From Selenomonadaceae bacterium (lineage in GTDB: Bacteria; Bacillota; Negativicutes; Selenomonadales; Selenomonadaceae), in contig CAXXXP010000001.1 in the NCBI GenBank assembly GCA_963678095.2, positions 301,525 through 365,524 of the forward strand: DNA of 64,000 bases. Direction: 5' to 3'. The notes beneath the pieces are model-generated. The model had not been told where the DNA came from. It saw nothing but the letters and a program-made list of their open reading frames with translations, and made no database searches. A program made the translations under genes and the position numbers. Below, one piece after another: positions 29,466 through 57,597 of the stretch (the stretch's first letter is position 1; each line of letters opens with the position of its first letter).

Positions 29466-30015
29466 TAATTATGATTCGTTTACCTATAATGTCTATCAGC
29501 TGCTGACCGAACTGGGCGCTGAAGTTGAGGTGGTTCGTAACGACAAGCTGACACTGGAACAAATCGAGGCGAAAAACTATGAGGCCATAGTGATTTCACC
29601 GGGCCCGGGGCGACCAGATGAGGCCGGTATTACCAAGGAATTGATCCGGTCTTTTGCCGGACAGCTGCCGATTCTGGGCATCTGTCTCGGGCATCAGGCC
29701 ATTGGCGAGGTCTTTGGTGGGAGGGTTGTCCGGGCCCCGGAGCCTATTCATGGCAAAACATCGAGGCTCGAGCATGACGGCACGGGCCTTTATCAGGGAA
29801 TTGAAAATCCAATGCAGGTTGGGCGGTATCACTCGTTGATCGTGGAGCGTGAATCGCTTCCCGAATGCTTTGAAATAACCTCACAACTGGAAGATGGCAT
29901 GATCATGGGCCTGCGTCATCGGCAGTATAAACTCGAGGGTGTGCAGTTTCATCCCGAATCGATTTTGACTCCGGCCGGTCGCCAGCTGCTGAAAAATTTT
30001 TTGGCAATGCTTTAA
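29449..30015 (+). CDS. trpG: anthranilate synthase component II (glutamine amidotransferase)
   Basis: [14 protein letters not shown] and GICLGHQ (catalytic Cys), plus an HPES motif. Overlaps the trpE end. Confidence 0.9.
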
Positions 30016-30079: not shown

Positions 30080-30108
30080 TTGACAATATATATTATTTAT
30101 TTTATGAT
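30080..30108 (+). promoter_or_regulatory. sigma-A promoter in front of the tandem cobalamin riboswitches
   Basis: TTGACA, a 17-nt spacer, then TATGAT. Confidence 0.5.
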
Positions 30109-30160
30109 GAATGAGTGAGCTCTTGTGAAAGTGATCACAAGATAAAAAATTATAGCGATT

Positions 30161-30360
30161 AGATCAGGTGTCTTAGGACTTAATAGGAAAGCTTGGTGAA
30201 AAACCAACGCGGTCCCGCCACTGTAACAGGGAGTAAATCTGCAAGAATGTCACTGGAGTGAAAGCTCTGGGAAGGCGCAGATAAGCGATGATCTGGAGCC
30301 AGGAGAACTGCCTGATGGATGATCACCGTTTGACCTGCGAGCGATGGGGAGGGGATTGGT
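30161..30360 (+). promoter_or_regulatory. cobalamin riboswitch (copy a)
   Basis: Conserved cores GGTCCCGCCACTGTAA and a B12-box-like GGAGCCAGGAGAACTGCC. The ~200-nt size is typical of AdoCbl class riboswitches. Confidence 0.85.
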
Positions 30361-30377
30361 TCATGCTGTTTTATTGG

Positions 30378-30413
30378 ATGGGCTTTTCTCTGCGTAGAAA
30401 AGCCCATTTTTTA
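30378..30413 (+). terminator. terminator of riboswitch a expression platform
   Basis: atgggcttttct-ctgcgt-agaaaagcccat followed by T6. Confidence 0.75.
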
Positions 30414-30465
30414 TTTGTGCAAGGGAGCATGAAAAGAACACCATTAGAAAAGAAAATATAGAAAG

Positions 30466-30665
30466 AGATCAGGTGTCTTAGGACTTAATAGGAAAGCTTG
30501 GTGAAAAACCAACGCGGTCCCGCCACTGTAACAGGGAGTAAATCTGCAAGAATGTCACTGGAGTGAAAGCTCTGGGAAGGCGCAGATAAGCGATGATCTG
30601 GAGCCAGGAGAACTGCCTGATTGATAATCACCGTTTGACCTGCGAGCGATAGGAAGGGGGATTTT
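30466..30665 (+). promoter_or_regulatory. cobalamin riboswitch (copy b)
   Basis: The first 156 nt are identical to copy a, and it has the same conserved cores. Confidence 0.85.
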
Positions 30666-30693: not shown

Positions 30694-30729
30694 CCCCGGC
30701 ATTTTTGTATGCCGGGGTAGTATTTTTTA
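30694..30729 (+). terminator. first terminator after riboswitch b
   Basis: ccccggcat-ttttgt-atgccgggg followed by a T-rich run. Confidence 0.7.
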
Positions 30730-30744
30730 TGAGTAAGGATCGTA

Positions 30745-30787
30745 CAAAAAAGCTTCTATTCCGTGAGGAACAGAAGCTTTTTTTTCT
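30745..30787 (+). terminator. second terminator after riboswitch b
   Basis: The hairpin agcttct...agaagct is flanked by A6 and T9. Confidence 0.7.
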
Positions 30788-30829
30788 TTGATTTTTAGAT
30801 GAGGATGTTATAAGGGGATGCTTTTATTT

Positions 30830-32752
30830 ATGAACAGGAAAAAAATTTTGACACTTATGGCCGTCTGTTCTTTGACGCTGCAAACCTCTGCCTGGGCGGC
30901 AGAAAAAAATGGACCGGCTGCGCTGGATGAATTTGAGATGGAAGATATGCTGGTGACGGCGCAGCGCATGGAGAAGAGTGAACTCGATACGCCGGCTGCA
31001 ACCACGGTTATTACGGCCAAAGAACTTGAGCAGGCCGGGTATCGCAATGTATTTGAGGCTATTGACCAGCAGCTTGGTTCGACCAGTACTTCGTATGGTG
31101 AGGCCGGACAGGATTTTGGCTTTAGCAGCGGACGGCTGGCGCTGCGCGGCTATGACCGGGGAACCTTGGTACTCGTCAACGGGGTGCCGATGAATTTAAA
31201 AAATTATGCAAGCACGGAAAATATCCCGATTGCAATGGTTGAGCGGATTGAGATCGTAAAAGGAGCGGCTTCGACACTTTATGGAAGTCAGGCCATGGGA
31301 GGCGTGATCAACGTGATTTTGAAGAAACCGGCAGCCGGCAACAAGCAAGGTACGGTTTCTACAACCTATGGGAATTATTTCAAAAAGACGGAAACGACCT
31401 ATCAGGGGGACAATTTTATGGTGGATATCAGCCGGGAACGATCCAGTGATATCCCACATTCCAATGCCTTTGGAATTGATAAGGTATCCTATACGAACTG
31501 GTGGGTAGGGGAAGGGCAAAAGGATCGCGTGGGGCTGGCCCTCAAGCTTACCGATGAATTATCTTTTAACTATGATTACACACAGGCTGATATCACCCGC
31601 GGCGGAACAAAATACAAGGTAAGCGGCAATGCTTTGGTTCCGGCAGGGACCCAATACAATTATTCCTTTGAGGATTATCGCCAATCGGGAAGCTTCACTT
31701 ATCAGGGAAAAGACAATGGCATAAAGGCGGTGCTTGGCTATAATTCCCGCAAGGTGGATGGGTACGATTATATCAAAAAAGCGAAGCTGTCGAGCAATCG
31801 AACGATGGACAGCGAAACGCTTGATCTGCAAAAAGAGTGGAAGCTCGATAAAGATACGTTTTTGGCCGGGTACTCTTTCCGCCAGGAAAATGCGGAAAAT
31901 ACATACAGTGCGCAAAGTGCAACGCGCTCAAGCAATGCGATCTACAGTTCCTATACGAAAAGCTTTAATGATCGACTGGAAGCAACGCTTGGTTTGCGAG
32001 GAGAGTTTATCAACGATCCGGAAAAAGACCAAAATGTCATTATGCCGCAGATTCAAAGCGTATACAAAGTCAGTCCGGACACCTCCTGGTATATCAATGT
32101 CGGCAAGGCATTTCAGATGCCCGATGTCGATGACGTGCTGACCTACAATAAAATCAATGCCAGCAATCTTAAGCCGGAAGAGGGCTGGACCTATGAAACT
32201 GGCTGGAAACATACGAAAGGTGCTGATAGCTGGAAGCTGGCACTATATCATATGGAGATGTCTAATAAAGTCGGCTGGGCTAAGGATACAAATGGCGAAT
32301 ACTATCCGATTAATACCGGGGATTTCCGCAATACCGGTGTGGAGGCCGAATATAAAAAGAAATTTGATGCGGTGTGGAGCATGAAGGTCGGCGCCGGCAT
32401 ATCCAATCCGGAGATCAATAATCCGTCTTCCACTACATCGGCCTGGGTTCAGGACGCTGCCCGGGTGGAAGGTCTCATAGGGGTCGACTATCAGAAAGAA
32501 AAATGGACGGCGAATATGAATATCAAATACCTCGGGGACCGCGAATACTATGCGGCTTCAGCCAGCAGTGGGCTGGCCCAGGATATACCGGATAAGCTGC
32601 AACTCAATATGAACTTCAATTATCAGTGTGATCGCGACAATTCCTTGAGTCTTGGCCTGTATAATTTGTTGAACCGGGATAACTATTCCAATCGGTATGG
32701 TAATCTTGATTTGCCGCGCAATTATCGGTTGACGTTTACACATAATTTCTGA
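30830..32752 (+). CDS. TonB-dependent outer-membrane receptor (BtuB-like, corrinoid uptake inferred from the riboswitches)
   Basis: Signal peptide, TonB box EDMLVTA, plug domain, beta-barrel, and a C-terminal aromatic residue (..THNF). Confidence 0.88.
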   Translation: MNRKKILTLMAVCSLTLQTSAWAAEKNGPAALDEFEMEDMLVTAQRMEKSELDTPAATTVITAKELEQAGYRNVFEAIDQQLGSTSTSYGEAGQDFGFSSGRLALRGYDRGTLVLVNGVPMNLKNYASTENIPIAMVERIEIVKGAASTLYGSQAMGGVINVILKKPAAGNKQGTVSTTYGNYFKKTETTYQGDNFMVDISRERSSDIPHSNAFGIDKVSYTNWWVGEGQKDRVGLALKLTDELSFNYDYTQADITRGGTKYKVSGNALVPAGTQYNYSFEDYRQSGSFTYQGKDNGIKAVLGYNSRKVDGYDYIKKAKLSSNRTMDSETLDLQKEWKLDKDTFLAGYSFRQENAENTYSAQSATRSSNAIYSSYTKSFNDRLEATLGLRGEFINDPEKDQNVIMPQIQSVYKVSPDTSWYINVGKAFQMPDVDDVLTYNKINASNLKPEEGWTYETGWKHTKGADSWKLALYHMEMSNKVGWAKDTNGEYYPINTGDFRNTGVEAEYKKKFDAVWSMKVGAGISNPEINNPSSTTSAWVQDAARVEGLIGVDYQKEKWTANMNIKYLGDREYYAASASSGLAQDIPDKLQLNMNFNYQCDRDNSLSLGLYNLLNRDNYSNRYGNLDLPRNYRLTFTHNF

Positions 32753-33720
32753 TGATACAGCAAAAGTGGAAGGGCTGGAAAATCTGGATATGCAGCATCA
32801 GTTTGCTATTTGCGGCTGGCTGTGGCATGCCACAGCCGAAGTCAGAACTGCCTTTTTATATGGGGGCGGATGACAGCGGACAGCTGGTCACTCTGGCGAA
32901 GAAGCCGGAACACATCGTATCCCTGAATCTTGGCACCGATGAAATTCTGTTCGAATTAGTTGATCCGGACAGGATTGCCGCACTTTCTTATCTGGCGGAG
33001 GATGAGGGGCTGTCCTCGATAAAAACAGCGGCTGAGGCGATCCCAAAATTAAAAAGCCGCAATCCGGAGGCAATCCTGGCGTTGGCGCCGGATCTAGTCC
33101 TTGCCGCTGATGGTATTCCGGAAGAGGTCACAGCTACGCTGCGGGATTCGGGGGTACCGGTGTTTTTGTCCAAAAGTCCGCAAAGCGTAGAGGAGGTCTT
33201 TGCCCGGATTGAGAACATTGGCCGGATTACCGGCAACTCTGCGAAAGCTAGACTGCTGCAAAGCAAGCTCAGGCAGCGTTTACTGGCCGTGCAAAAAAAG
33301 ACAGCACAGATACCGGAGGCACAGAGACGGACGGTATTGGCGTTTTCCTTTAGCGGACCGTTTGGTCGCGAAGGGGGGATGTTTGATGATATGTGTCAGC
33401 AGGCTGGCATAAAAAACGGCGCGGCTGTTTTGGGACTGACAAAAAACCAGTTACTGAGTAAGGAACAGGTAGTTACGCTGGATCCGGATGTAATTTTACT
33501 TCCGGATTGGAGCCAGGATAAAAAAGATCCGGAAATTTTCCGGAAGCAATTTACGATGGACCCTGCCTATCAGGAACTTAAAGCCTTGCATAGTGGCTGC
33601 CTGCTGACGGTTCCTGATCGCTATCGGTACAGTGCTTCCCAGTATGCAGTGGAGGCAGTTGAGGTTTTGTCGCGTACCATTTATCCGCAGGTATGGGTTG
33701 AGGCTGATTTTGCTGAATAA
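32752..33720 (+). CDS. periplasmic substrate-binding lipoprotein, class 8 (BtuF/FhuD-like), paralog 1
   Basis: Lipobox LFAAGC and the IVSLNLGTDEILFEL motif typical of siderophore/cobalamin binding proteins. Confidence 0.8.
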   Translation: MIQQKWKGWKIWICSISLLFAAGCGMPQPKSELPFYMGADDSGQLVTLAKKPEHIVSLNLGTDEILFELVDPDRIAALSYLAEDEGLSSIKTAAEAIPKLKSRNPEAILALAPDLVLAADGIPEEVTATLRDSGVPVFLSKSPQSVEEVFARIENIGRITGNSAKARLLQSKLRQRLLAVQKKTAQIPEAQRRTVLAFSFSGPFGREGGMFDDMCQQAGIKNGAAVLGLTKNQLLSKEQVVTLDPDVILLPDWSQDKKDPEIFRKQFTMDPAYQELKALHSGCLLTVPDRYRYSASQYAVEAVEVLSRTIYPQVWVEADFAE

Positions 33721-33821
33721 CTAACGGCTATAGCTGTTGCCGTATAATTTGCCTGTCCAATAATGGCAGAAATGATGTGTTGGGTAGTTGTTGTCAAAGC
33801 TAAGGAAGGGGCAATGCCACA

Positions 33822-34829
33822 GTGGAAAAATTTTTATGGCATAAAAAAACTGGACTGCTTCTATGCCTGATCGGCATGTTTTTTATTGCTGGCTGCGGGG
33901 AAACAGGTCCGACGTCTTTATCACAAACAAAAACCAGCTATAATTTTACGGATTCGCAGGGAACGTTAATTCATATGGAGGCAAAGCCGCAGCGAATCGT
34001 GACCTTATCGATGAGTACGGATGAAATAATTCTGGGGCTTGTCGAGACAAAAAAAATGGCTGCCATTAATAAGCTGCTGGATGATCCGGTAAGTTCTAAT
34101 ATTGCGGTTTTGGCGGGGGAAATACCTACGAAAATAGGCAATCCATCCATTGAAGAGCTTGTGGCACTGTCACCGGATCTGATTGTTGTTCCTGATTGGG
34201 GCAATATTGAAAATGCAGCCGCTTTGAGGGAACTGGGCTTTAAAGTTGCCGTCTGCAAGGGACCCAAAAATATTGATGAGATAAAAGAAACCATCGTGCT
34301 CCTGGCAACAGCTGCTGGCGAGCCACAAAGAGGACAGATGTTGGTGGAAAAGATGGACAGGAAATTAGAGGAGATTAGAAAAAACGTTGAACAAATTATC
34401 CCGGCCGAGCGCAAAAGCATTGTGCTGCTGTCACTGATGCGCTCCTATGGCGGCCGTGGTTGTACCTTTGATGATGCCTGCTGGCTGGCCGGGGTTACGA
34501 ATGCAGTGTCGGCAGCAGGGATTCAAAATGGGCAGGCTATGACAAAAGAACAGCTGGTAAGCCTGAATCCGGATATCTTGTTTTTGCCGACGTACAGTGA
34601 CCATGGAAAATATGACATAAATTCTTTTCACCGTGAGTATCTGGAGGATCCCTCACTGCAGTCGATGAAGGCTATACAGCAAAAGCAGCTGGCGGAGCCA
34701 AGGGAAGGATACATATACAATTGTTCACAGGATATTGTCTTTGGCGTACAGGAAATGGCTTATATGGCTTATGGGGATCGGTTTTCGCAGCCGGGGGATT
34801 GCCATCTGTCGGCGCTTGCGGGCGATTAG
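33822..34829 (+). CDS. periplasmic substrate-binding lipoprotein, class 8 (BtuF/FhuD-like), paralog 2
   Basis: Lipobox FIAGC and IVTLSMSTDEIILGL. It is collinear with paralog 1 at an estimated ~30% identity. GTG start, 9 nt after AGGAAGGGG. Confidence 0.78.
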   Translation: MEKFLWHKKTGLLLCLIGMFFIAGCGETGPTSLSQTKTSYNFTDSQGTLIHMEAKPQRIVTLSMSTDEIILGLVETKKMAAINKLLDDPVSSNIAVLAGEIPTKIGNPSIEELVALSPDLIVVPDWGNIENAAALRELGFKVAVCKGPKNIDEIKETIVLLATAAGEPQRGQMLVEKMDRKLEEIRKNVEQIIPAERKSIVLLSLMRSYGGRGCTFDDACWLAGVTNAVSAAGIQNGQAMTKEQLVSLNPDILFLPTYSDHGKYDINSFHREYLEDPSLQSMKAIQQKQLAEPREGYIYNCSQDIVFGVQEMAYMAYGDRFSQPGDCHLSALAGD

Positions 34830-34967
34830 CTTCATAAAGAGGCGCAGGCCGCTACGATAAAGGGGGCGGTTGTGTTCAACCGTGAAGAAAAAAGACCAGA
34901 AGTTAAGATTGTCGCTGTCACAGCCAAAATGCTGCAGATCATCAAGTCGGTACGGGCTTGAGAAAGT

Positions 34968-35894
34968 GTGAGTGCAAAGATGAATAAGAAAATTATAACC
35001 ATAGAAAATCTGGATGCAGCCTATGCCGGGCATTATTCGGTACTGAAAAATATTACCTGTTCAGTTGGGTCTGGAGAAATGGTAGGAATTATCGGCCCCA
35101 ATGGGGCCGGAAAAAGTACCTTGCTGAAGACACTGCGGGGATTGCTGCCGATTCGAAACGGGCGGGTCCTTTTTGATGGGCTTGATATAAAAGATATAAA
35201 GGCGCATGAATTTGCCTTGCAGGTGGCATATCTGCAGCAGCAGGTGGAAATTTCTTTTGGCTATACAGCAAAAGAGATTGTAATGGCAGGCCGCTATCCG
35301 CATATAAAATGGTGGCAGAAGGAGAGCGATGAGGATAAACAACTGGTCAAAGCCTGCATGGAATATACCGGTGTATGGGAACTTGCCGATCGACCTGTTC
35401 ATGCGCTTTCCGGAGGGCAGCGCCAGCGGGTTTTGCTGGCCAAGGTTTTGGCGCAGCAAACACCGCTGCTCTTTCTCGATGAACCGGCAACAGGGCTGGA
35501 TGTTTTCTATCAAGAGGAAATTTTCCGCTTTTGCCGGGAACTTTGCCGGGCCGGGAAAACGGTGATTTTAGTTGTCCATGAATTGGGACTTGCTGCCAGA
35601 TTTTGTTCCCGGCTGCTGCTTTTGGGAAAACAGCGTCTTATTGCTGATGGGATACCGGCGACAGTTTTGACGCAGGAAAATTTAAGTGATGCCTATAATG
35701 TGGCGGTAAAGGTCGTACAAAATCCGCTGACGGGAAATTTTGATATCTTCACGCAGTCCCCGCCAACGGAGGAACGGCAAAAGGCCCTGCAGCAGATTCT
35801 TCGTTCCCCGAAAAAGCAGCAGCTTTTAGCGGACAAAGAGAAAACTGCGATGCGGCTTGCCTTGTTCGAGGAAGAAAAGAGGAAATATATATGA
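34968..35894 (+). CDS. ABC transporter ATP-binding protein (BtuD/FepC-like) with a ~50-aa charged C-terminal extension
   Basis: Walker A GPNGAGKST, signature LSGGQRQR, and Walker B LLFLDEP. The start may instead be the ATG at 34980. Confidence 0.85.
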   Translation: MSAKMNKKIITIENLDAAYAGHYSVLKNITCSVGSGEMVGIIGPNGAGKSTLLKTLRGLLPIRNGRVLFDGLDIKDIKAHEFALQVAYLQQQVEISFGYTAKEIVMAGRYPHIKWWQKESDEDKQLVKACMEYTGVWELADRPVHALSGGQRQRVLLAKVLAQQTPLLFLDEPATGLDVFYQEEIFRFCRELCRAGKTVILVVHELGLAARFCSRLLLLGKQRLIADGIPATVLTQENLSDAYNVAVKVVQNPLTGNFDIFTQSPPTEERQKALQQILRSPKKQQLLADKEKTAMRLALFEEEKRKYI

Positions 35895-36928
35895 AACAAC
35901 GATTCGGTCGGTCTTTGCCATTTTTGGCAATCATGGCTGGCATCTTTATTCTTGTCAGCCTGTTGTCGCTTTCCGTGGGGCAGGTGGATATTCCGTTTGA
36001 AAAAATCCTGGCGGCTTTTTGTCAGCAGGCGGGACTGCCTTATTTGGCGGGAGTGCCCGTTTCGCCGGAACAACAGGCCGTGCTCTGGCATATTCGTTTG
36101 CCGCGAACCTTAGTGGGACTGCTTGTGGGTGCTGGACTGGCGATTTCTGGTGCCGTTATGCAGGGGATATTTAGTAATCCCCTGGCTGATCCGGGGATTG
36201 TCGGTGTATCAAGCGGGGCCTCCGCTGGAGCTGTTATCGCTATTGGTTTGGGCTTGACGGAGATCAGCATGTTCTATATGCCGCTGTTTGCGTTCGGGGG
36301 AGCTCTGGCGGCAGTCACCCTCACGGTTTTTCTGGCAATGCGGCACCGACGGATTCCGGTAATGACCTTGCTTTTGTCCGGCGTTGTTGTAGGGATGCTG
36401 CTGGGCGCCGTTACGGCAGGCATACTTACCGTGCTCAATGAGCAAAAACTGCAGCAATATTTGTTTTGGACCATTGGCGGGCTTGATTACCGCCGCTGGG
36501 AGCATGTGGTGCTAGGGGCTCTGCCGATTTGCTGCGGAATTGGCTTGATGTTGCTGCTGGCACGCCATTTAAATGTCCTCGTTCTGGGGGAAGTTGAGGC
36601 AAAAAGTGTTGGCATGCGGGTAGGCTTTTTTCGCTTATTTTTACTGACGCTGGCCTCCATGACTACGGCGACGGGCGTATGTATCAGCGGGAATATCGGT
36701 TTTGTCGGACTCGTCGTGCCACATATGATGCGAATGCTCGTCGGGCCGGATCACCGCCGGCTTTTGCCGGCAAGCGTACTGGCGGGCGGAGCATTTTTGG
36801 TGTTATGCGATACGATGGGACGGGTGATTTTCCCGCCGACGGAAATTCGGGTGGGAATTATGACGGCGGCTTTGGGAACCCCGTATTTTTTGTATCTGCT
36901 CAGAAAGAATAAAGAGTTAAACCGATAA
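35891..36928 (+). CDS. FecCD-family ABC permease (BtuC-like)
   Basis: About 10 TM helices, LPRTL..GAGLA and GxIGFVGLVVPH motifs. Confidence 0.88.
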   Translation: MKQRFGRSLPFLAIMAGIFILVSLLSLSVGQVDIPFEKILAAFCQQAGLPYLAGVPVSPEQQAVLWHIRLPRTLVGLLVGAGLAISGAVMQGIFSNPLADPGIVGVSSGASAGAVIAIGLGLTEISMFYMPLFAFGGALAAVTLTVFLAMRHRRIPVMTLLLSGVVVGMLLGAVTAGILTVLNEQKLQQYLFWTIGGLDYRRWEHVVLGALPICCGIGLMLLLARHLNVLVLGEVEAKSVGMRVGFFRLFLLTLASMTTATGVCISGNIGFVGLVVPHMMRMLVGPDHRRLLPASVLAGGAFLVLCDTMGRVIFPPTEIRVGIMTAALGTPYFLYLLRKNKELNR

Positions 36929-36941
36929 GGAGCGTAAACAA

Positions 36942-37715
36942 ATGAACGAGTATGATCCGGCAGTTGCCGTACAGACGCAAAGCCTTGTGAAAAAATATCA
37001 TGGGCAGGCAGTGCTTCGGGGTGTATCGCTGTCGATTCCCCGTGGGGGGATTTTCGGACTTTTGGGTCCGAATGGTGCCGGAAAAACAACACTGCTTAAG
37101 ACCCTTGCCGGCCTTGTGCGTCCGACTTCGGGCACGTTGGCGATTTTTGGGCGGGAGGTTAAGGGCCCGGATCCGGCGATGCGTCGGCTTGTCGGCCTGA
37201 TCCCGCAGGATAATAATCTGGAACGTGAGCTGAGTGTCGAAGAGGCCCTGGTTGTTTATGGACGCTTGTTTGGACTCAAACGGGTAAAGGAGACTGTAGC
37301 AAAAACCATGGAGCGGTTTTCGCTTATGGATCTACGCCACAAACAAGTGCGCACGCTTTCCGGGGGAATGATGCGCCGGGTACTGATCGCCCGCACGCTG
37401 TTGGCTGATCCGGAGCTGATTTTGCTCGATGAGCCTACGGTCGGGCTTGATCCTGATGTGCGCCAGAGCATATGGGATATTATGCAGTCCCTGCAAGAAG
37501 CCGGGAAGACCCTGGTTTTTACAACGCATTATATGGAAGAAGCTGAGCGGCTGTGTGATCATATCGCTATTTTGCAGCAGGGTACACTGTTTTTTTCTGC
37601 TACCAAGGAACAGCTGCAGGCCAGGATTGGTATGGAGGTACGAGATCTGGAAAATTTATTCATAGAGCTGGCAAGAAACGGAGGGAGTAGTGATGGGGTT
37701 TTATGCCGTCTATAG
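36942..37715 (+). CDS. ABC transporter ATP-binding protein, ABC-2 (exporter-type) subfamily
   Basis: Walker A GPNGAGKTT, LSGGMMRR, LLDEPTVGLD. DrrA/CcmA-like. Confidence 0.85.
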   Translation: MNEYDPAVAVQTQSLVKKYHGQAVLRGVSLSIPRGGIFGLLGPNGAGKTTLLKTLAGLVRPTSGTLAIFGREVKGPDPAMRRLVGLIPQDNNLERELSVEEALVVYGRLFGLKRVKETVAKTMERFSLMDLRHKQVRTLSGGMMRRVLIARTLLADPELILLDEPTVGLDPDVRQSIWDIMQSLQEAGKTLVFTTHYMEEAERLCDHIAILQQGTLFFSATKEQLQARIGMEVRDLENLFIELARNGGSSDGVLCRL

Positions 37716-38427
37716 CCGGGAACTGCTGCTGCTGCGCAAAAAAATCGGCCGGATGGGCTATGTGTTTTCGAGTGTGATTTCGCCGTTTATTTATCTGTTT
37801 GCCTTTGGTTATGGGCTTGGCAACAGGATCGAAATTACAGGGGGCTATCTGCCATTTTTGGCGGGCGGAATCATTGGCGTTACAGTAATGATCAATGCCT
37901 TTCAGCAGACGGCATCTTCAATCAGTGCCGGAAAGTTTTACTATCATGTATTTCAAAGTCTTGTGCTGTCACCTGTGCGAAGCGGTTCGGTAATTGCTGG
38001 CATCATTGCAGCCGGTATGGTGCGAGCACTTTTTTTTGGCAGTCTGATTTTTATCATGGCGCAGCTGGTATTTCAGGTAAACGGAAGCATCCTGCTGTTT
38101 TTATTTGGCGCCTTGCTGGGATCATTTTGTTTTAGTGCCCTGGGGGTAATTGTTGGGCTGCTGGTGCGGCATCCGGACGATATTGCCTTTGTTAACAATT
38201 TTTTGATCATGCCGATGACGTTTTTTGGCGGTTCGTTTTTCCCGGTGCAGAGTCTGCCCGTCTGGATGCAGTATATGGTAGGACTATTTCCAATAGGGGC
38301 CTTAAACCATCTGCTGCGGGGGCAGCAATGGGATTTTGAAATGTGGCTTGCTGCCAGTCTGCTTTTGGGGCTGGGAATTGTTTTTTTTGTCGTGGGAGTA
38401 CATCTTTACCAGCAGTATAGTGAATGA
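37693..38427 (+). CDS. ABC-2 type transporter permease
   Basis: Six predicted TM helices with typical ABC-2 membrane-protein length. Overlaps the preceding ATPase gene. Confidence 0.78.
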   Translation: MGFYAVYSRELLLLRKKIGRMGYVFSSVISPFIYLFAFGYGLGNRIEITGGYLPFLAGGIIGVTVMINAFQQTASSISAGKFYYHVFQSLVLSPVRSGSVIAGIIAAGMVRALFFGSLIFIMAQLVFQVNGSILLFLFGALLGSFCFSALGVIVGLLVRHPDDIAFVNNFLIMPMTFFGGSFFPVQSLPVWMQYMVGLFPIGALNHLLRGQQWDFEMWLAASLLLGLGIVFFVVGVHLYQQYSE

Positions 38428-38480
38428 GGCTTTTGGTGACGGAAAGCTATATAAAATTTATTTATTGAGGAGGAATTTTT

Positions 38481-39134
38481 GTGGATTATATTGTAAATGC
38501 ATGGGAACTGTTTCATAAGGGCGGTTTTGTCATGTATATATTATTGCTTTGCTCTGTATTTGTTGTGGCGATAGGAATGGAACGGGGGTTATATTTTCAT
38601 GCAGCCGATGCTGGCCGGCGGTTTGCTGAAGAATTTTCGCTCTTGCTTGGCCAGTGCCGAGTCCAAGAAGCACGGCGACTGTTGGCAACAGCCAAGGGAG
38701 ATCTTCCCCGGCTGTTACAGGAAGCCATGGAGAAACGGCCAGCAGAATTGGCGCTTTATTTGGAAGTCCAGTCGGGTATTTTTTTGTCTAAGCTTCGTAA
38801 ACGTTTGTACTATCTTAGCGTTATTGTGACGATGGCACCCTTGCTTGGTCTGCTTGGCACGATCAGTGGCATGATTTCTTCTTTTAGTGTGTTTAATCTG
38901 GAAGCAGGCCAGGCGGCAGCGATTACCGGCGGTGTTGGCGAGGCTCTGATTGCCACGGCGATGGGGCTTTGCGTGGCGATTGTCTCCCTGACTGTCCATG
39001 CTTATTTTTCGCAAAGAATTGAAAATATCATAACGGATATGGAGCAGAGTTTTTCGCTGCTTGAAGCACAAGAAGAGTTGCTGAAGAATTGTGAAGCGCA
39101 GGTGGAAGGAGTGGCTTGTCATGAGATTGCGTGA
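38481..39134 (+). CDS. exbB: MotA/TolQ/ExbB proton-channel protein
   Basis: Three TM helices and the motif APLLGLLGTISGMI..F. GTG start after the GAGGAGG RBS. Confidence 0.85.
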   Translation: MDYIVNAWELFHKGGFVMYILLLCSVFVVAIGMERGLYFHAADAGRRFAEEFSLLLGQCRVQEARRLLATAKGDLPRLLQEAMEKRPAELALYLEVQSGIFLSKLRKRLYYLSVIVTMAPLLGLLGTISGMISSFSVFNLEAGQAAAITGGVGEALIATAMGLCVAIVSLTVHAYFSQRIENIITDMEQSFSLLEAQEELLKNCEAQVEGVACHEIA

Positions 39135-39531
39135 CCGGCGCAGTTTTTCAAAGCCCGAAGTCATGATCATCCCGATGATCGATATCATGTTCTTTTTGCT
39201 GGTCTTTTTTATGCTTAGTACTTTGTATATGGTGAATTTGAAGACGGTCAGTGTTAATATGCCAAAGGCCGAGCATGCGGAGACACAGATGAATGCAACC
39301 TATCTGGTTACCATGAAAAAGGATGGGTCCTTGTGGCTCGAGGATAAGCGGATGGAGGAAGAAACTTTACTTAAGCAGGCCCAGGTGGAAAATAAGAAAA
39401 ACAGCAAGTTTGCCCTAGTGCTGCGAGCCGATCAGGATCTCGACTACGGAATGATCATCAGCCTGTTGGATAAGTTTAAAAGTGCCGGAATCACGCGCTT
39501 TGCCCTGGCGACGGAAGCCGGGAGGCCGTAA
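39121..39531 (+). CDS. exbD: biopolymer transport protein ExbD/TolR
   Basis: The IPMIDIMFFLLVFFM TM segment contains the conserved Asp. It also has a periplasmic domain. Confidence 0.85.
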   Translation: MRLRDRRSFSKPEVMIIPMIDIMFFLLVFFMLSTLYMVNLKTVSVNMPKAEHAETQMNATYLVTMKKDGSLWLEDKRMEEETLLKQAQVENKKNSKFALVLRADQDLDYGMIISLLDKFKSAGITRFALATEAGRP

Positions 39532-39533
39532 GG

Positions 39534-40277
39534 ATGAACAGAGAGAGAAAGGGGAAATATCAGGCAGCCGCCTTGTCAATCTTGCTGCATCTATTGGTTT
39601 TTCTCGTCGTCGCTTCGACTGGCATCTTTTCTAACAGCCCGGTCCGGGAAAAGCTGATAGACCTTGTCGTTTACGAGGAGGCGGCAGCAAGTCCGGCGGC
39701 TTCAATTTCAGCCGACAGTGGCGGCAGCGAGATAACCTCAAGTGCTATCTCGTTGCCAAGTGAGCAAGCGCTTCCGGAAATAACCAAAGAATACACAAGG
39801 GCAAAACCTGTACTGGCGGAAACTGGTGAAAATCCTAAAAAGGTTGAGGCTGTTACCAGTGGTAATCTTGAAAATACAGGAGCAAATGCTGGATCTAGAA
39901 CAGGCAATGGGGCTGAATCGGGCAAGGGCGGATCGGGAACTGGTGATTCCGGAGCAGGTGCTGGTGGTTCTGTCGGGGCTGCAGGTTCGGCAGCCGGGCA
40001 ACTAAAGCGTTCGCCTCAGATTCTGTCGCAGCCGGCTCCCATATATCCGGAGAATTTACGCCGGCGCAATATCGAAGGGGCGGTTACTGTGAGGATTACT
40101 GTCGGTGCTGATGGTCTGGTGGAAAATGTTGAAATCCTTCAATCGTCCGGCTATGATGAAATGGATGCGGCGGCGACGGAGGCTGTATACAAATACCGTT
40201 ATCAGCCAGCTGTCAGCAGCAATGGCGATGAGGTTCGCTGCGCTATAAAAAGAACACTGCACTTTGCTATAGAATAG
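39534..40277 (+). CDS. tonB: energy transducer TonB
   Basis: N-terminal TM anchor and a C-terminal TonB_C domain (YPENLRRRNIEGAVTVRITVGADG...YQPA). The linker is Gly/Ser/Ala-rich. Confidence 0.85.
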   Translation: MNRERKGKYQAAALSILLHLLVFLVVASTGIFSNSPVREKLIDLVVYEEAAASPAASISADSGGSEITSSAISLPSEQALPEITKEYTRAKPVLAETGENPKKVEAVTSGNLENTGANAGSRTGNGAESGKGGSGTGDSGAGAGGSVGAAGSAAGQLKRSPQILSQPAPIYPENLRRRNIEGAVTVRITVGADGLVENVEILQSSGYDEMDAAATEAVYKYRYQPAVSSNGDEVRCAIKRTLHFAIE

Positions 40278-40425
40278 TCAGCTGGCCGGGAAGCCGTTGG
40301 TAAAATAATTTTTTAATTTGCTACATAAATCGTCCAAATATGATAAAATAAAAGACAGTGCAGTTTTTTATAAAATGAAATCGAGCCGCCGTCAGGCGGC
40401 CTTATGCTTTGGTTTGGAGGAAACA

Positions 40426-42045
40426 ATGTCAGCAGAAGATTTTAACAATGAGATTCAAAAACGCCGGACGTTTGCGATTATTTCCCATCCGGATGCCGGG
40501 AAGACAACTTTAACAGAAAAATTATTGCTTTATGGTGGAGCCATTCATCTGGCCGGATCGATAAAGTCCCGCAAGACACAGCGTCATGCGGTATCGGATT
40601 GGATGGAAATTGAAAAACAGCGCGGCATTTCTGTCACGTCGAGTGTGTTGCAGTTTGACTATGCCGGCTGCCGCATCAACATTCTTGATACCCCGGGACA
40701 TCAGGACTTCAGTGAGGATACGTATCGTACCTTGATGGCCGTTGACAGCGCCGTTATGATCATTGATGTTGCCAAAGGGGTTGAAGCGCAGACCAAGAAA
40801 TTGTTTAAAGTCTGCAAGCAGCGGGGCATTCCAATTTTCACTTTTATCAACAAGCTTGACCGTTATGGTAAGGCTCCGCTTGATCTGATGGAGGAGATTG
40901 AAAATGTGCTCGGCATCAGGTCGTATCCGATGAACTGGCCGATTGGAACCGACGGCAATTACCGCGGTGTTTATGACCGCCAGAAGAAGCAGATCGAATT
41001 CTTCGATGAGGATGCAAGTCATGGGCAGAAGGCTCGTACTTCGGTAACCGGTTCACTCGATGATCCGGATATAAAAGATCTTTTGGGACAAGACATTCAG
41101 CAGGCGCTGATCGATGATATTGATCTGCTTGATGCAGCCGGAGAAGCCTTCGATCTTGAAAAAATAGCCCAGGGAGAACTGACACCGATGTTTTTCGGTA
41201 GCGCTATGACCAATTTCGGGGTGCAGAACTTCTTGGAAGAATTTCTGCGACTGGCACCGCCGCCAGCGCCAAGGATTTCGTCGGATGGAATTATTGCTCC
41301 GACGGATGAGGAATTTTCGGCCTTTGTCTTTAAGATTCAGGCCAATATGAATCCGGCCCATCGGGACCGTTTGGCTTTTATCCGTATTTGCTCAGGGAAA
41401 TTTGAGCGCGGAATGTCAGTCTATCATCACAAGACAGACAAGATGATTAAGCTGGCACAGCCGCAGCAGTTTTTGGCGCAAGATCGACAGATTGTCGATG
41501 AAGCCTATCCGGGAGATATCATCGGATTGTTTGATCCGGGAATTTTTGGTATCGGTGATACACTCTGTGATGCCGGACGTAAGTTTGACTTTGCCGATTT
41601 CCCGGTATTCCCTCCGGAAAAATTTGCCCGCGTGCAGGCCAAGGACACTATGAAGCGCAAGCAGTTTGTCAAAGGAATCACGCAGCTGACGCAGGAGGGA
41701 GCCGTACAGCTCTTCCGTCAGGCCGGAGCCGGAATGGAATCCTATATTGTCGGCACGGTCGGCAATCTGCAGTTTGAAGTCCTGGAATATCGTCTGAAAA
41801 ACGAATATGGTGTTGATATCATCATGCAGATGCAGCCATATGAAGTGGCCCGCTGGCTGACCTTTGACGATGGAACAACGGTTACACCGGAATCCTTGCG
41901 CGGAGCGGATCGGGGCATGTTTGTCTATGACATGAAGGATCGTCCGGCACTGCTCGTCAATAATGAATGGGCTCTGGGCTGGATTTCCGACAATAATCCG
42001 GAACTCAATATGTTCCATGTTCCGCCGGATAAAAAAGAAGCATAA
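40426..42045 (+). CDS. prfC: peptide chain release factor 3
   Basis: RRTFAIISHPDAGKTT, DTPGHQDF, and NKLD GTPase motifs. The ATG at 40426 follows the GGAGG RBS. Confidence 0.93.
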   Translation: MSAEDFNNEIQKRRTFAIISHPDAGKTTLTEKLLLYGGAIHLAGSIKSRKTQRHAVSDWMEIEKQRGISVTSSVLQFDYAGCRINILDTPGHQDFSEDTYRTLMAVDSAVMIIDVAKGVEAQTKKLFKVCKQRGIPIFTFINKLDRYGKAPLDLMEEIENVLGIRSYPMNWPIGTDGNYRGVYDRQKKQIEFFDEDASHGQKARTSVTGSLDDPDIKDLLGQDIQQALIDDIDLLDAAGEAFDLEKIAQGELTPMFFGSAMTNFGVQNFLEEFLRLAPPPAPRISSDGIIAPTDEEFSAFVFKIQANMNPAHRDRLAFIRICSGKFERGMSVYHHKTDKMIKLAQPQQFLAQDRQIVDEAYPGDIIGLFDPGIFGIGDTLCDAGRKFDFADFPVFPPEKFARVQAKDTMKRKQFVKGITQLTQEGAVQLFRQAGAGMESYIVGTVGNLQFEVLEYRLKNEYGVDIIMQMQPYEVARWLTFDDGTTVTPESLRGADRGMFVYDMKDRPALLVNNEWALGWISDNNPELNMFHVPPDKKEA

Positions 42046-42065: not shown

Positions 42066-42096
42066 AAAAAACAGGCTGCAAGTGTGCAGCCTGTTT
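42066..42096. terminator. bidirectional terminator between prfC and the convergent HIT-like gene
   Basis: aaaaacaggctgca-agtg-tgcagcctgttt. Confidence 0.75.
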
Positions 42097-49191: not shown

Positions 49192-49225
49192 AAGCAAGTA
49201 AATTCGATACAATTTCATAGGGATG

Positions 49226-55656: not shown

Positions 55657-57597
55657 ATGAACAGCAGAGAAAAAATGAGAACGCAGCTGGTGGCCGCGGT
55701 CTGCTTGGGGCTTATTATCGGCCCTGGCAGTATGGCTGTTGCCCATGGCGAGGCGCTGCCGGAATTTACCGGGGAGGATTATGTGGTCACGGCCAGTCGG
55801 ATTCCAACCAGAATGTCAGAAACGCCGGCTAATGTTACTGTTATTACGGCGGATATGATTGCCCAGAATCATTATCAGGATTTGGCAGAAGCACTGCGGC
55901 GGGTCAATGGCATCGTGGTCACCGAAGCAGCAATGAGTCATCAGGATATTGTCCGAATAGATGGGGATGACCGGGTGGTGGTATTGCTTGATGGTCGGCG
56001 GATGAATATGGACAAAGGGGCAGCCTCAGGGCGCGCTGGTATTGATTTAAAAACGATTGCCAGCCTGCAAAACATTGAGCGCATTGAAGTTGTAAAAGGG
56101 GCAGGTTCAGCCCTCTACGGATCAGATGCTGTTGGCGGGGTAATTAATATCATTACCCGGCATGGCAAGAAAGTGAAAAATAGCTCTACCCTCGATATGA
56201 GCCTTGGCTCATGGAAGACAAAAACTGTTGATTATTCAAATCAGGGCAGCGAGGGCGACTGGAGCTGGTTTTTGACGGCAGGTTTTGAGAATCAGGGCAA
56301 TATGGATTTCAAGAACTGGAAAACAGACCGCAGTGACTCGATGCCAAACAGCGATTATAATAAAAAGAATACGACGCTGCGTCTGGATCGCAGCTTAACG
56401 GCTAATACTTCCCTGACCTTGAATTATGAGCATATGACAGATGACTCCGGACAATGGAATCAGGCGCCGGGCTATGCAAATTATCCGCATGACCGGATGG
56501 ATAAGTTGGTCAACAATATCGCATTAACCTACAATTATAAAGAGCACCAGCCGGCGCCGAGTTATCTGCGGTATTATGAAAATTATACGACGCAGGGCTT
56601 TCATGATATCGATGGCTGGTCCCCGGCCTTTTCTCGCTACAGCAATAAAGTCCGCGGGCTTGACTGGCAGGATAGCTGGCAAGTTGGTGCGCAGCACCTT
56701 GTGGGTGGTTTGGAGTGGCGGGAAACGGTAGTCGATAACGGCGCTGTCAATGGCGGTGATTACAGCGACAAGAAGGTCACCAATCAGGCAGTATTTTGGG
56801 AGGATGCAATTGAGCTGAGCGACCGCTGGACCCTTACTCCGGGTTTGCGTGCGGACCATCACAATATGTTTGGCTCGCAGCTTACACCTAAGGTGGCTGC
56901 CAGCTATAAAGCTGATGAAAATACAAATTTTTATGCGTCCTGGGGCAGGGTGTTCAACGCACCGAATACGGATGATCTCTTCTGGCACGATCCCTATGGC
57001 TATATGAATGGAAATCCTGATTTAAAACCGGAACGCGGCTACAAGATCAGCGCTGGAATGAATACAAAGCTGTCAAAAACAACAGGCTTACATATGAATG
57101 TATTTACGAGCAAAATATCTGATGCTATAAAATGGGCCGATAATGGAAGTGGAATATGGCAGGCTCTTAATTTAAATGAAGAGAAAAAACGCGGTTTTGA
57201 ATTTACCGTTGATAGTGTCCTTAACAATCGCTGGAGTGCAGATATTGGTTATTCGTATATTAAAACGGAAACCAACGACATGCAGCAAGGCTATGTATGG
57301 GATGAGAATAACAGCAGCCCTAATGGCTATCGCGCTGGTCTTCATTATAAGGATGCGCGCTGGAACAGCAATCTTTTCCTTAATGCCGGCACTGGCCGCA
57401 GCACAAGGTATTTCACCGACAGTTCTTATTGGACAATTGACTTTAATGCCAATTACAAAATGACAGAGGATCTCACGGCCTATATTAAGGTAAACAATCT
57501 GTTTGATAAAGCGTATGAAAATACCGGTAAAATAACGCCGGGAGCATATCCGATGGGCGGACGGTATCTGCAGGTTGGTGTAAGGTATTCGTTCTGA
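55657..57597 (+). CDS. TonB-dependent outer-membrane receptor (second, BtuB-like)
   Basis: Signal peptide, TonB box EDYVVTA, plug, barrel, and a C-terminal ..VRYSF. Confidence 0.88.
   Translation: MNSREKMRTQLVAAVCLGLIIGPGSMAVAHGEALPEFTGEDYVVTASRIPTRMSETPANVTVITADMIAQNHYQDLAEALRRVNGIVVTEAAMSHQDIVRIDGDDRVVVLLDGRRMNMDKGAASGRAGIDLKTIASLQNIERIEVVKGAGSALYGSDAVGGVINIITRHGKKVKNSSTLDMSLGSWKTKTVDYSNQGSEGDWSWFLTAGFENQGNMDFKNWKTDRSDSMPNSDYNKKNTTLRLDRSLTANTSLTLNYEHMTDDSGQWNQAPGYANYPHDRMDKLVNNIALTYNYKEHQPAPSYLRYYENYTTQGFHDIDGWSPAFSRYSNKVRGLDWQDSWQVGAQHLVGGLEWRETVVDNGAVNGGDYSDKKVTNQAVFWEDAIELSDRWTLTPGLRADHHNMFGSQLTPKVAASYKADENTNFYASWGRVFNAPNTDDLFWHDPYGYMNGNPDLKPERGYKISAGMNTKLSKTTGLHMNVFTSKISDAIKWADNGSGIWQALNLNEEKKRGFEFTVDSVLNNRWSADIGYSYIKTETNDMQQGYVWDENNSSPNGYRAGLHYKDARWNSNLFLNAGTGRSTRYFTDSSYWTIDFNANYKMTEDLTAYIKVNNLFDKAYENTGKITPGAYPMGGRYLQVGVRYSF

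Follow-up and report, generated by a model that had tools for sequence, protein, structure and literature searches.

A ten-gene operon of a Selenomonadaceae bacterium, preceded by two cobalamin riboswitches, encodes a receptor, binding proteins, transporters and a Ton motor, and we estimate a probability of about three in four that its function is the scavenging of corrinoids, the vitamin B12 family. The operon carries the only TonB/ExbB/ExbD set of the genome, and a cobalamin riboswitch stands before each of the three TonB-dependent receptors that this genome encodes.

Gene content of the operon

The window analysed here is a stretch of 64,000 nucleotides, and the nearest public relative is a Selenomonadaceae MAG. 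All ten open reading frames lie on the + strand (30830-40277), where a previous sequence-only reading had placed them, and Pfam assigns a family to every one (10/10; Table 1), in agreement with the gene string and identities then proposed. Together with the riboswitch matches (family RF00174) and the Selenomonadaceae relative, these assignments bear out its description of a riboswitch-controlled, envelope-spanning gene set in a diderm Firmicute. Genes overlap or are spaced by 2-53 nt, except for two larger gaps that bracket the gene of the second binding protein (101 nt at 33721-33821 and 138 nt at 34830-34967), which had been given as 100-140 nt. The absence of strong internal terminators was also correctly read: terminator-like matches are short, weak and all within coding sequence. 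A terminator search found no strong candidate between tonB and prfC either.

Table 1. Features of the operon, its leader and the second receptor gene (positions in the window)
Feature	Position	Strand	Details
Promoter-like site	30080-30108	+	TTGACA, 17-nt spacer, TATGAT; 11/12 matches, pattern match only
Cobalamin riboswitch aptamer 1	30149-30329	+	RF00174, 104.2 bits
Intrinsic-terminator-like hairpin of riboswitch 1	30376-30409	+	14-bp stem, then U run
Cobalamin riboswitch aptamer 2	30454-30634	+	RF00174, 107 bits
Expression platform of riboswitch 2	30694-30787	+	two terminator-like hairpins
TonB-dependent receptor TBDR1	30818/30830-32752	+	Plug + TonB_dep_Rec_b-barrel
Binding protein 1 (SBP1)	32752-33720	+	Peripla_BP_2
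Binding protein 2 (SBP2)	33822-34829	+	Peripla_BP_2
Importer ATPase	34968-35894	+	ABC_tran; alternative start ATG 34980
Importer permease	35891-36928	+	FecCD, 326.8 bits
ABC-2 ATPase	36942-37715	+	ABC_tran
ABC-2 permease	37690-38427	+	ABC2_membrane
ExbB	38481-39134	+	MotA_ExbB
ExbD	39091-39531	+	ExbD
TonB	39534-40277	+	TonB_C
Second TonB-dependent receptor TBDR2	55657-57597	+	end of methylmalonyl-CoA mutase (MCM) operon

The receptor TBDR1 likelier starts at ATG 30830 than at 30818: a ribosome-binding site (AAGGGG) lies 11 nt upstream of the former, and the protein read from it begins with an N-terminal signal peptide ending AWA/AE. A TonB-box-like motif (EDMLVTA) can be read in its sequence. 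The start of SBP1 overlaps the TBDR1 stop, and both SBP1 and SBP2 are class III substrate-binding lipoproteins, with lipoboxes FAAGC and FIAGC, respectively. The two are old paralogues, with 30-32% identity to each other. The importer ATPase and permease belong to the type II (BtuCD/FecCDE-like) ABC importer class, and the ABC-2 ATPase is DrrA/NodI-like.

Tandem riboswitches in the leader

The leader contains two complete cobalamin riboswitches, not one, both far above the RF00174 gathering score of 31.5 bits. A core of 156 nt is identical between the two copies and suggests that they duplicated recently. In the platform of the second copy, a terminator-like hairpin and its U run (30694-30717) precede another hairpin with a U tract (30745-30787). 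Homotypic tandem (“pseudo-cooperative”) AdoCbl riboswitches were reportedly described by Sudarsan et al. in 2006. As in those, the leader has two full riboswitches that belong to one class and that each have a terminator; it differs in the identical 156-nt core and in the two terminator-like hairpins after copy 2. Tandem AdoCbl doublets are a known architecture, of which 26 have been catalogued (Sherlock et al. 2022, PMC9481103). In a reporter system, corrinoids elicited a response from related cobalamin riboswitches of the Negativicutes, those of Sporomusa ovata btuB2 and Veillonella parvula mutA (PMC9600662).

A single Ton complex and three riboswitch-gated receptors

A profile search of the whole genome with PF01618 recovered only this ExbB gene and MotA, and tblastn revealed no ExbB paralogue in the genome; the gene is the sole ExbB/TolQ-class gene present. 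ExbD, whose transmembrane Asp lies within the stretch IPMIDIMFF, has no paralogue elsewhere in the genome. TonB shows a membrane anchor with the SxxxH motif (SILLH), a Gly/Ser/Ala-rich linker and the TonB_C domain. A second, weak TonB_C match in the genome belongs to a DUF348/G5-type protein and was rejected as a TonB. The operon thus encodes the only TonB/ExbB/ExbD set of a genome that is 99.2% complete.

Plug-domain genes number exactly three in this genome, and all of them sit behind cobalamin riboswitches. TBDR2 closes an MCM operon that has its own tandem riboswitch (at 49213 and 49695), with no terminator found between meaB and the receptor gene, and it must depend on the TonB of the operon described here. 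TBDR3 (C1:1509824) lies directly 3′ of a riboswitch at C1:1509577-1509759. With all three receptors gated in this way, the whole Ton system looks dedicated to corrinoids. The location of the sole Ton set inside the operon and the riboswitch gating of every receptor are the new elements of this analysis; the sequence-only reading had missed both.

The probable cargo

Gene context makes corrinoids the best-supported cargo. The closest homologues of TBDR1, SBP1 and SBP2 are found in riboswitch-controlled operons, beside MCM, CbiZ, CobN or CbiK. In the case of TBDR1, riboswitches precede all of its closest homologues (63, 59 and 56% identity), and among solved receptors BtuB alone aligns with it over most of its length (E = 7e-16). 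Homologues of SBP1 (44-51% identity) directly follow receptor genes in operons under riboswitch control in which CbiZ/CobN/ChlID or MCM are also encoded. SBP2, the binding protein conserved across operons of this family, is 53% and 59% identical to binding proteins of riboswitch-TonB operons in two other genomes (G009 and G018, respectively). Corrinoid contexts were found for both lineages.

Neither sequence models nor predicted folds tell B12 binders apart from binders of haem or siderophores. The names BtuF-, BtuD- and BtuC-like that had been given to them hold at the family level, but none of the operon proteins reaches an NCBIfam equivalog cut-off for BtuB, BtuF, BtuC or BtuD, and models for siderophore and haem systems score about the same as those for B12. 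The permease matches the BtuC model NF007081 best, with a score of 295 bits that falls short of the 461 required. The sequence-only reading had suggested that the two binding proteins might serve two ligand classes; HMMs and predicted folds (pLDDT 89.9 for SBP1 and 86.8 for SBP2) yielded a ligand call for neither: in fold searches with both models, haem, siderophore and molybdate binders rank first, and Vibrio cholerae BtuF comes only 31st for SBP1.

These similarities raise the alternative that B12 is only the regulator and that the cargo is another tetrapyrrole or an iron chelate, such as haem, a siderophore or a metal-free or incomplete corrin. The best NCBIfam matches of the importer ATPase are a corrinoid ATPase model (243 bits) and a haem one (239 bits), both below cut-off, and haem binders are among the top sequence and fold matches of the SBPs. 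Moreover, the FecCD permease (41%) and the ABC-2 permease (46%) resemble those of an anaerobic haem operon, devoid of riboswitch, from another genus (G008). However, the binding proteins are only 21-22% identical to those of that haem system, and TBDR1 matches its receptor in the plug only, which indicates that the parts that determine the substrate have no orthologues there; their true orthologues lie behind cobalamin riboswitches, beside CbiZ, CobN, CbiK or MCM. A cobalamin riboswitch is not known to us to control haem or siderophore uptake in any described case, and a literature search found none; we consider a non-corrinoid cargo very improbable.

The ABC-2 pair is a conserved accessory common to corrinoid and haem Ton clusters. 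Relatives of its permease with 68% and 65% identity sit in clusters with ChlI-ChlD chelatase, nitrogenase-like proteins and receptors, the former also with CbiZ and CobN, whereas the relative at 46% is that of the haem operon. As a guess, the pair could export a by-product or unwanted analogues.

One transcription unit or several

We infer that the ten genes are co-transcribed. An internal promoter, either in the 101-nt spacer or before exbB, could instead divide them into several units and sustain expression of the importer, the Ton complex or both at high B12, which would limit tight riboswitch gating to the receptor and SBP1. The spacer is non-coding, shows 98% identity to the sister species (about 91% in the flanking genes), contains a perfect TATAAT (33743-33748) and has no stable RNA structure (z = +1.16). 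Conservation above that of coding DNA, together with the TATAAT, makes a promoter, or else an operator, possible. Weak promoter-like matches occur at 33737-33764 and 38465-38492, and in one relative (G077) a separate riboswitch directly precedes exbB-exbD-tonB, so this block can be a unit of its own. On the other hand, the TATAAT lacks a good -35 element on its upstream side, the genes follow one another closely or overlap without any convincing internal terminator, and relatives with a separate exbBD-tonB unit still have a riboswitch there. With all three receptors riboswitch-gated, a constitutive TonB would also lack a known client. An internal promoter of this kind appears unlikely to us.

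Related operons in Negativicutes and other bacteria

The sequence-only reading had called it unusual that a B12-regulated operon has an ExbB-ExbD-TonB set of its own, which does not hold for this clade. Of 26 Selenomonadaceae genomes, 12 have a tonB downstream of a cobalamin riboswitch on the same strand (two were checked gene by gene with Pfam), and so do 11 of 20 genomes with a single TonB from other families of the Negativicutes (three checked as contiguous same-strand ORF strings). After the riboswitch, G009 carries CbiK, binding protein, receptor, ATPase, FecCD, ExbB, ExbD and TonB; G018 carries a 334-aa gene, a receptor (59% identical to TBDR1), the SBP2 homologue, a second receptor, ATPase, FecCD, ExbB, ExbD and TonB; G058 a receptor, a CbiR-like gene, ExbB, ExbD and TonB; and G077 and G119 only the last three. 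Compared with these, our operon has in addition the duplicated riboswitch, SBP1 and the ABC-2 pair, and lacks CbiK and CbiR-like genes, which are found elsewhere in the window (59026-60060 and 57664-58695, respectively). Operon-linked TonB sets have been published for Veillonella, as nine TonB operons (PMC5491611) and as haem operons that include exbB-exbD-tonB (PMC10404700). A literature search found no published description of riboswitch-controlled receptor to ExbB-ExbD-TonB operons as such, nor any experimental study of how Negativicutes take up corrinoids by TonB-dependent transport, so the earlier statement that corrinoid uptake in diderm Firmicutes is uncharacterised is roughly right. 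Given how common the layout is among relatives, the operon illustrates a known arrangement well and does not represent a new one.

The BtuB-BtuFCD system of E. coli and Salmonella has the same parts (receptor, class III binding protein, type II ABC importer and Ton motor), the same predicted mechanism and a receptor-repressing cobalamin riboswitch (the btuB AdoCbl riboswitch). In E. coli, however, the genes are scattered, the riboswitch acts on btuB only and the Ton complex is common to iron uptake and not B12-regulated, whereas here a single operon follows two transcription-terminating riboswitches and includes two binding proteins and the ABC-2 pair, its proteins falling below every Btu equivalog cut-off.

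Operons of the hmu type for anaerobic haem uptake and utilisation, with their own exbB-exbD-tonB, are known from Fusobacterium and Veillonella (McGregor et al. 2023, PMC10404700). That of G008, a member of the Selenomonadaceae, comprises ExbB-ExbD-TonB, binding protein, FecCD, ATPase, the ABC-2 pair (46% identical), flavodoxin, radical SAM, receptor and ChaN. Both types are self-contained envelope-spanning operons for tetrapyrrole uptake that include a Ton motor, but the haem operons carry an HmuW-like radical SAM, flavodoxin and ChaN, have no cobalamin riboswitch, and encode a receptor and a binding protein that are not orthologues of TBDR1 and the SBPs.

A model for corrinoid uptake

Transcription would start at about 30110 and run through two adenosylcobalamin-type OFF riboswitches that act independently and in series. 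Since each riboswitch ends in its own intrinsic terminator, we infer that the operon is read only at low cellular corrinoid, and the arrangement in series may give a sharper response and less leak. TBDR1 would bind the corrinoid in the outer membrane, its plug being opened by the ExbB-ExbD-TonB complex from the end of the operon, driven by the proton-motive force. One or both lipoproteins would take up the corrinoid in the periplasm, and the type II ABC importer would carry it across the inner membrane. Since the only Ton complex is encoded here and riboswitches also gate the remaining two receptors, the B12 regulon would take in all transport that depends on TonB in this bacterium.

The operon and its boundaries

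The ten plus-strand genes that a sequence-only reading had assigned to a single operon (30830-40277) were all recovered by ORF listing and Pfam searches, and their spacing agrees with that description: neighbouring genes overlap or are separated by 2-53 nt, except for the gaps of 101 and 138 nt flanking the gene of the second binding protein (SBP2). We infer that the ten genes are co-transcribed and repressed by B12. On the 5′ side, the trp genes end at 30015, before the operon leader. On the 3′ side, the interval between tonB and prfC (40277-40427) holds a weak GC hairpin alone (40385-40400) and no strong terminator, the first of which occurs 3′ of tonB at 42069-42096. The ORF call for prfC from TTG 40318 extends too far upstream; the gene actually starts at ATG 40427, preceded by GGAGG. 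An extended -10-like element, TGATAAAAT, is found in the same interval at 40341-40349.

The closest public relative of the locus belongs to a Selenomonadaceae MAG (a sister species), beyond which the related-locus search returned no further close relatives. The spacer between the two binding-protein genes (33721-33821, 101 nt) shows 98% identity to the contig of the sister species, against ~91% in the flanking coding DNA, and holds a perfect TATAAT at 33743-33748 without a good -35 element; it could act as an internal promoter or operator. A structured RNA in this spacer was ruled out for want of a stable fold (z = +1.16). A small ORF with a strong ribosome-binding site (34872-34961) was also rejected as a gene, because its spacer is only 69% identical to the sister species, with indels, and the ORF is not conserved there.

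Features of the operon, its leader and the receptor genes of the genome (window positions, unless contig C1 is indicated)
Feature	Position	Strand	Basis or context
Promoter-like site	30080-30108		pattern, 11/12 matches
Cobalamin aptamer 1	30149-30329		Rfam RF00174, 104.2 bits (gathering score 31.5), full model length 1-189
Terminator-like hairpin + U run	30376-30409		pattern and fold only
Cobalamin aptamer 2	30454-30634		Rfam RF00174, 107 bits (gathering score 31.5), full model length 1-189
Terminator-like hairpin + U run	30694-30717		pattern and fold only
Additional hairpin with U tract	30745-30787
TonB-dependent receptor TBDR1 (Plug + barrel)	30830-32752	+	ORF listing, Pfam PF07715, PF00593
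Peripla_BP_2 binding protein 1 (SBP1)	32752-33720	+	ORF listing, Pfam
Peripla_BP_2 binding protein 2 (SBP2)	33822-34829	+	ORF listing, Pfam
ABC ATPase of importer	34968-35894	+	ORF listing, Pfam PF00005
FecCD permease	35891-36928	+	ORF listing, Pfam PF01032 (326.8 bits)
ABC ATPase of ABC-2 pair	36942-37715	+	ORF listing, Pfam PF00005
ABC-2 permease	37690-38427	+	ORF listing, Pfam PF01061
ExbB	38481-39134	+	ORF listing, Pfam PF01618
ExbD	39091-39531	+	ORF listing, Pfam PF02472
TonB	39534-40277	+	ORF listing, Pfam PF03544
Receptor TBDR2	55657-57597		end of methylmalonyl-CoA mutase (MCM) operon, led by a separate tandem riboswitch (49213 and 49695)
Receptor TBDR3	C1:1509824-1512076		monocistronic, directly after riboswitch C1:1509577-1509759

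A tandem riboswitch in the leader

The two aptamers of the leader lie 305 nt apart, with no ORF of at least 80 aa between them in the ORF listing, and the sole strong promoter-like site of the leader stands upstream of the first copy. This arrangement, two complete copies of the same class without an intervening ORF or promoter, is that of a homotypic tandem riboswitch. Each copy is followed by its own terminator-like hairpin, and both riboswitches are predicted to be of the transcriptional OFF type. The copies share an identical core of 156 nt and can be aligned over ~218 nt at ~95%, a similarity that points to a recent duplication of the riboswitch. Sherlock et al. catalogued 26 homotypic doublets of AdoCbl riboswitches in which each copy has its own expression platform, and deemed them pseudo-cooperative (PMC9481103). 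Kennedy et al. tested riboswitches of relatives (PMC9600662).

The only Ton system of the genome

The last three genes encode MotA_ExbB, ExbD and TonB_C domains together. The TonB protein scores 66.6 with the TIGR01352 tonB_Cterm model (cut-off 27.1), and the SxxxH motif of its membrane anchor can be read as SILLH at residues 15-19, as can the transmembrane Asp of ExbD within IPMIDIMFF. A proline-rich periplasmic spacer is absent from this TonB, whose linker (~residues 110-155) is a low-complexity stretch rich in Gly, Ser and Ala. In the assembly, which comprises 2.96 Mb in two contigs (C1 and C2, with the window at C2:301525-365524) and is 99.2% complete, tblastn down to E = 50 found no paralogues of ExbB, ExbD or TonB elsewhere. 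The TonB_C model gave one weak match besides the operon TonB, at C1:2080369, which was ruled out as a second TonB since it is a DUF348/G5/3D protein; likewise, the one other match of the MotA_ExbB model is the flagellar MotA, adjoining MotB. The operon thus carries the only Ton system of the genome.

The same genome has exactly three Plug-domain genes and at least nine cobalamin riboswitches, and all three receptor genes are located behind one of them; in the case of TBDR2, no terminator was found before the receptor gene in the MCM operon. With every receptor behind a riboswitch, the regulation makes sense as a whole: in cells well supplied with corrinoid, receptors would not be made and the Ton motor would not be needed. 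Every receptor gene lies downstream of a cobalamin riboswitch in at least four of the Selenomonadaceae genomes examined (this one, G004, G009 and G058).

Two further loci of this genome deserve mention. Outside the window, at C2:101865-106641, another cobalamin riboswitch is followed by genes for a 317-aa protein and a precorrin-methylase-like protein, and then by a second binding protein-FecCD permease-ATPase set, whose binding protein is 31% identical to the haem binder of G008, a Selenomonadaceae genome discussed below, versus 24-26% to SBP1 and SBP2. After TBDR2 comes a gene for a 343-aa TIM-barrel protein of the AP_endonuc_2 family (PF01261, 57664-58695), and genes of this family also follow a receptor or TonB in riboswitch operons of two other genera (L035:2811-3821 and L033:8613-9590). 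CbiR, the cobamide-remodelling phosphodiesterase of Akkermansia, belongs to PF01261 (PMC7733943), and by this shared membership these genes would be CbiR candidates coupled to uptake.

Recurrence in the Negativicutes

An ExbB-ExbD-TonB set within a B12-regulated operon had been regarded as unusual, a view that does not hold for this clade. A TonB_C gene is present in 45 of 61 sampled Selenomonadaceae genomes, many of them with exactly one. We merged the positions of the TonB, Plug and riboswitch matches for 26 of these genomes. At least 12 of them have a tonB with a cobalamin riboswitch on the same strand no more than 15 kb upstream, and at least 55 of 127 receptor genes were within 12 kb of such a riboswitch. 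The per-genome riboswitch lists are lower bounds (66 candidates scored per genome), and regions around tonB were therefore re-scanned directly with Rfam. Contiguous operons, supported by Pfam and an ORF check, occur in other genera: riboswitch, receptor, AP_endonuc_2, ExbB, ExbD and TonB in G058; riboswitch, CbiK, binding protein, receptor, ATPase, FecCD, ExbB, ExbD, TonB and AP_endonuc_2 in G009; and an operon similar to the latter, with two receptors, in G018. A direct Rfam scan detected no riboswitch at seven further single-TonB Selenomonadaceae loci, and the linkage is therefore frequent, not universal, in the family.

For the other Negativicutes families, the ~14 kb upstream of tonB were scanned with Rfam in 20 single-TonB genomes. 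In 11 of them, tonB is preceded on the same strand by a cobalamin riboswitch at a distance of 1.8-11.7 kb. By a rough estimate, chance alone would put a gene within such a distance downstream of any of ~10 riboswitches in a genome of 3 Mb in ~2% of cases. Three ORF strings were checked: a riboswitch followed by exbB, exbD and tonB (G119); a riboswitch-led receptor/importer operon followed by another riboswitch and the same three genes (G077); and a riboswitch with mutA, mutB, meaB and further genes before exbB, exbD and tonB (G072). In G095, also from another family, six cobalamin riboswitches are clustered in 8.3 kb around the only tonB (locus L063, G095:C2:329000-344000), and two tandem pairs can be recognized among them (6636/6930 and 14395/14729).

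Operon-encoded TonB systems are known in Veillonella parvula (PMC5491611), and haem operons with their own exbB-exbD-tonB have been described (PMC10404700). We found no statement of cobalamin-riboswitch control of tonB in Negativicutes in the literature searched.

What the system carries

Family models and folds do not separate B12 binders from haem or siderophore binders for these proteins, whether through NCBIfam, sequence searches against the PDB, or AlphaFold followed by Foldseek. TBDR1, which has a TonB-box-like EDMLVTA after its signal peptide, falls below the BtuB equivalog cut-offs (TIGR01779, 132.5 vs 599.7; NF007926, 110.2 vs 836), and the siderophore model TIGR01783 gives it a similar score (133.5), also far below cut-off; BtuB is the sole solved receptor that aligns across most of it. 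The importer likewise misses the BtuC (295 vs 461) and BtuD (141.7 vs 281) equivalogs, its ATPase scoring 243 bits with a corrinoid model and 239 with a haem model, and its permease gene overlaps the cognate ATPase gene by 4 nt. Both binding proteins carry a lipobox, and both miss the BtuF equivalog (38.1 for SBP1 and 27.5 for SBP2, vs 234), with 31-34 bits on the IsdE model versus 27-38 on BtuF. Their AlphaFold models are confident (pLDDT 89.9 and 86.8), and Foldseek against the PDB places haem, siderophore and molybdate binders on top, with BtuF at rank 31 for SBP1 and not among the best 50 for SBP2. By this comparison, neither protein is a specific member of the BtuF family; each may still bind a corrinoid.

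It is the genomic context that favours corrinoids. The three closest homologues of TBDR1 with readable context (63, 59 and 56% identity) are all behind riboswitches. The binding proteins encoded in the G009 and G018 riboswitch-TonB operons are orthologues of SBP2 (53% and 59% identity, respectively), and SBP1 represents a lineage of its own, whose 44-51% identical members directly follow receptors in riboswitch-controlled operons that also carry MCM, or CbiZ, CobN and ChlI/ChlD. This neighbourhood supports a corrinoid cargo, and the envelope-spanning uptake machine with a corrinoid role proposed in the sequence-only reading is likewise supported by gene content together with the riboswitch and corrinoid-gene context.

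SBP1 and SBP2 share 30-32% identity, and may thus serve two ligand classes. Alternatively, SBP1 would partner the receptor for hand-off and SBP2 would dock on the ABC importer.

The ABC-2 pair and its relatives in corrinoid and haem clusters

The DrrA-like ATPase of the ABC-2 pair reaches 238.6 with the model TIGR01188, below the subfamily cut-off of 312.45, and adjoins its permease; from family membership, one might guess that the pair is an exporter. A relative with 68% identity (G029) belongs to a cluster in the order CbiZ, CobN, binding protein, receptor, ChlI, ChlD, ATPase, NifH/D/K-like genes, FecCD and ABC-2, and another with 65% (G011) to a related cluster with two binding proteins and a receptor 52% identical to TBDR1; the operon starts of both clusters abut contig ends. 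These corrinoid-salvage clusters combine a NifH-like and two nitrogenase-component-1-like genes (L047:7799-11211, in G029:C78, and L048:10533-14005, in G011:C17) with receptor genes, ChlI/ChlD and an ABC-2 pair, and in G029 also with CbiZ and CobN.

More distant relatives occur in G008 (46%) and G047 (44%), two genomes of one other Selenomonadaceae genus. The G008 locus (L046, G008:C1:433000-451000) is an anaerobic haem operon of the hmu type, in the order ExbB, ExbD, TonB, binding protein, FecCD, ATPase, ABC-2 pair, flavodoxin, 477-aa radical SAM protein, receptor and ChaN; in G047, coordinates alone place tonB, ABC-2 and receptor in the same order. The substrate-specific parts of the G008 operon are unrelated to those of the operon studied here (21-22% identity between the binding proteins, and a receptor match in the plug only), and Rfam detects no cobalamin riboswitch at the G008 locus. 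Since this haem operon contains the sole TonB of its genome, single-TonB Selenomonadaceae genomes appear to be dedicated to either corrinoid or haem. The presence of the ABC-2 pair in both corrinoid (G029, G011) and haem (G008) clusters marks it as an accessory that recurs in Ton uptake clusters for tetrapyrroles. The genome under study has a paralogous ABC-2 pair outside the window (C2:91124-93316; ATPase 42% and permease 28% identical to those of the operon), with a flavodoxin-like gene on its 3′ side, as a flavodoxin likewise follows the pair in the G008 haem operon.

Implications

The major propionate producers of the gut, mouth and rumen include Negativicutes such as Selenomonas, Veillonella, Dialister and Megasphaera, which need corrinoids for methylmalonyl-CoA mutase. 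To our knowledge, there is no experimental study of corrinoid uptake and competition in these bacteria. The operon is not a new kind of system; its useful points are that it holds the genome's only Ton system and that tonB is widely under the control of riboswitches across the Negativicutes. Moreover, it offers a compact and fully linked parts list (receptor, two binders, importer, motor and regulator) for studying corrinoid uptake in this group. The genome-wide picture leads to a simple, testable prediction, namely that all TonB-dependent transport of this bacterium should cease once B12 is added.

Our joint reading, to which we give a tentative probability of about 0.3, combines a Ton system placed in the B12 regulon, an accessory ABC-2 pair and a division of labour between SBP1 and SBP2. 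In its first part, the whole Ton system would belong to the B12 regulon here and in about half of the sampled single-TonB Negativicutes. In its second part, the ABC-2 pair would be an accessory, conserved but not recognised until now, of Ton uptake clusters for tetrapyrroles (corrinoid and haem). The widespread B12 control of tonB in Negativicutes bears on the retention of outer-membrane energy coupling in diderm Firmicutes, for which corrinoid scavenging, and not iron uptake, would then be the main reason to keep TonB-dependent transport.
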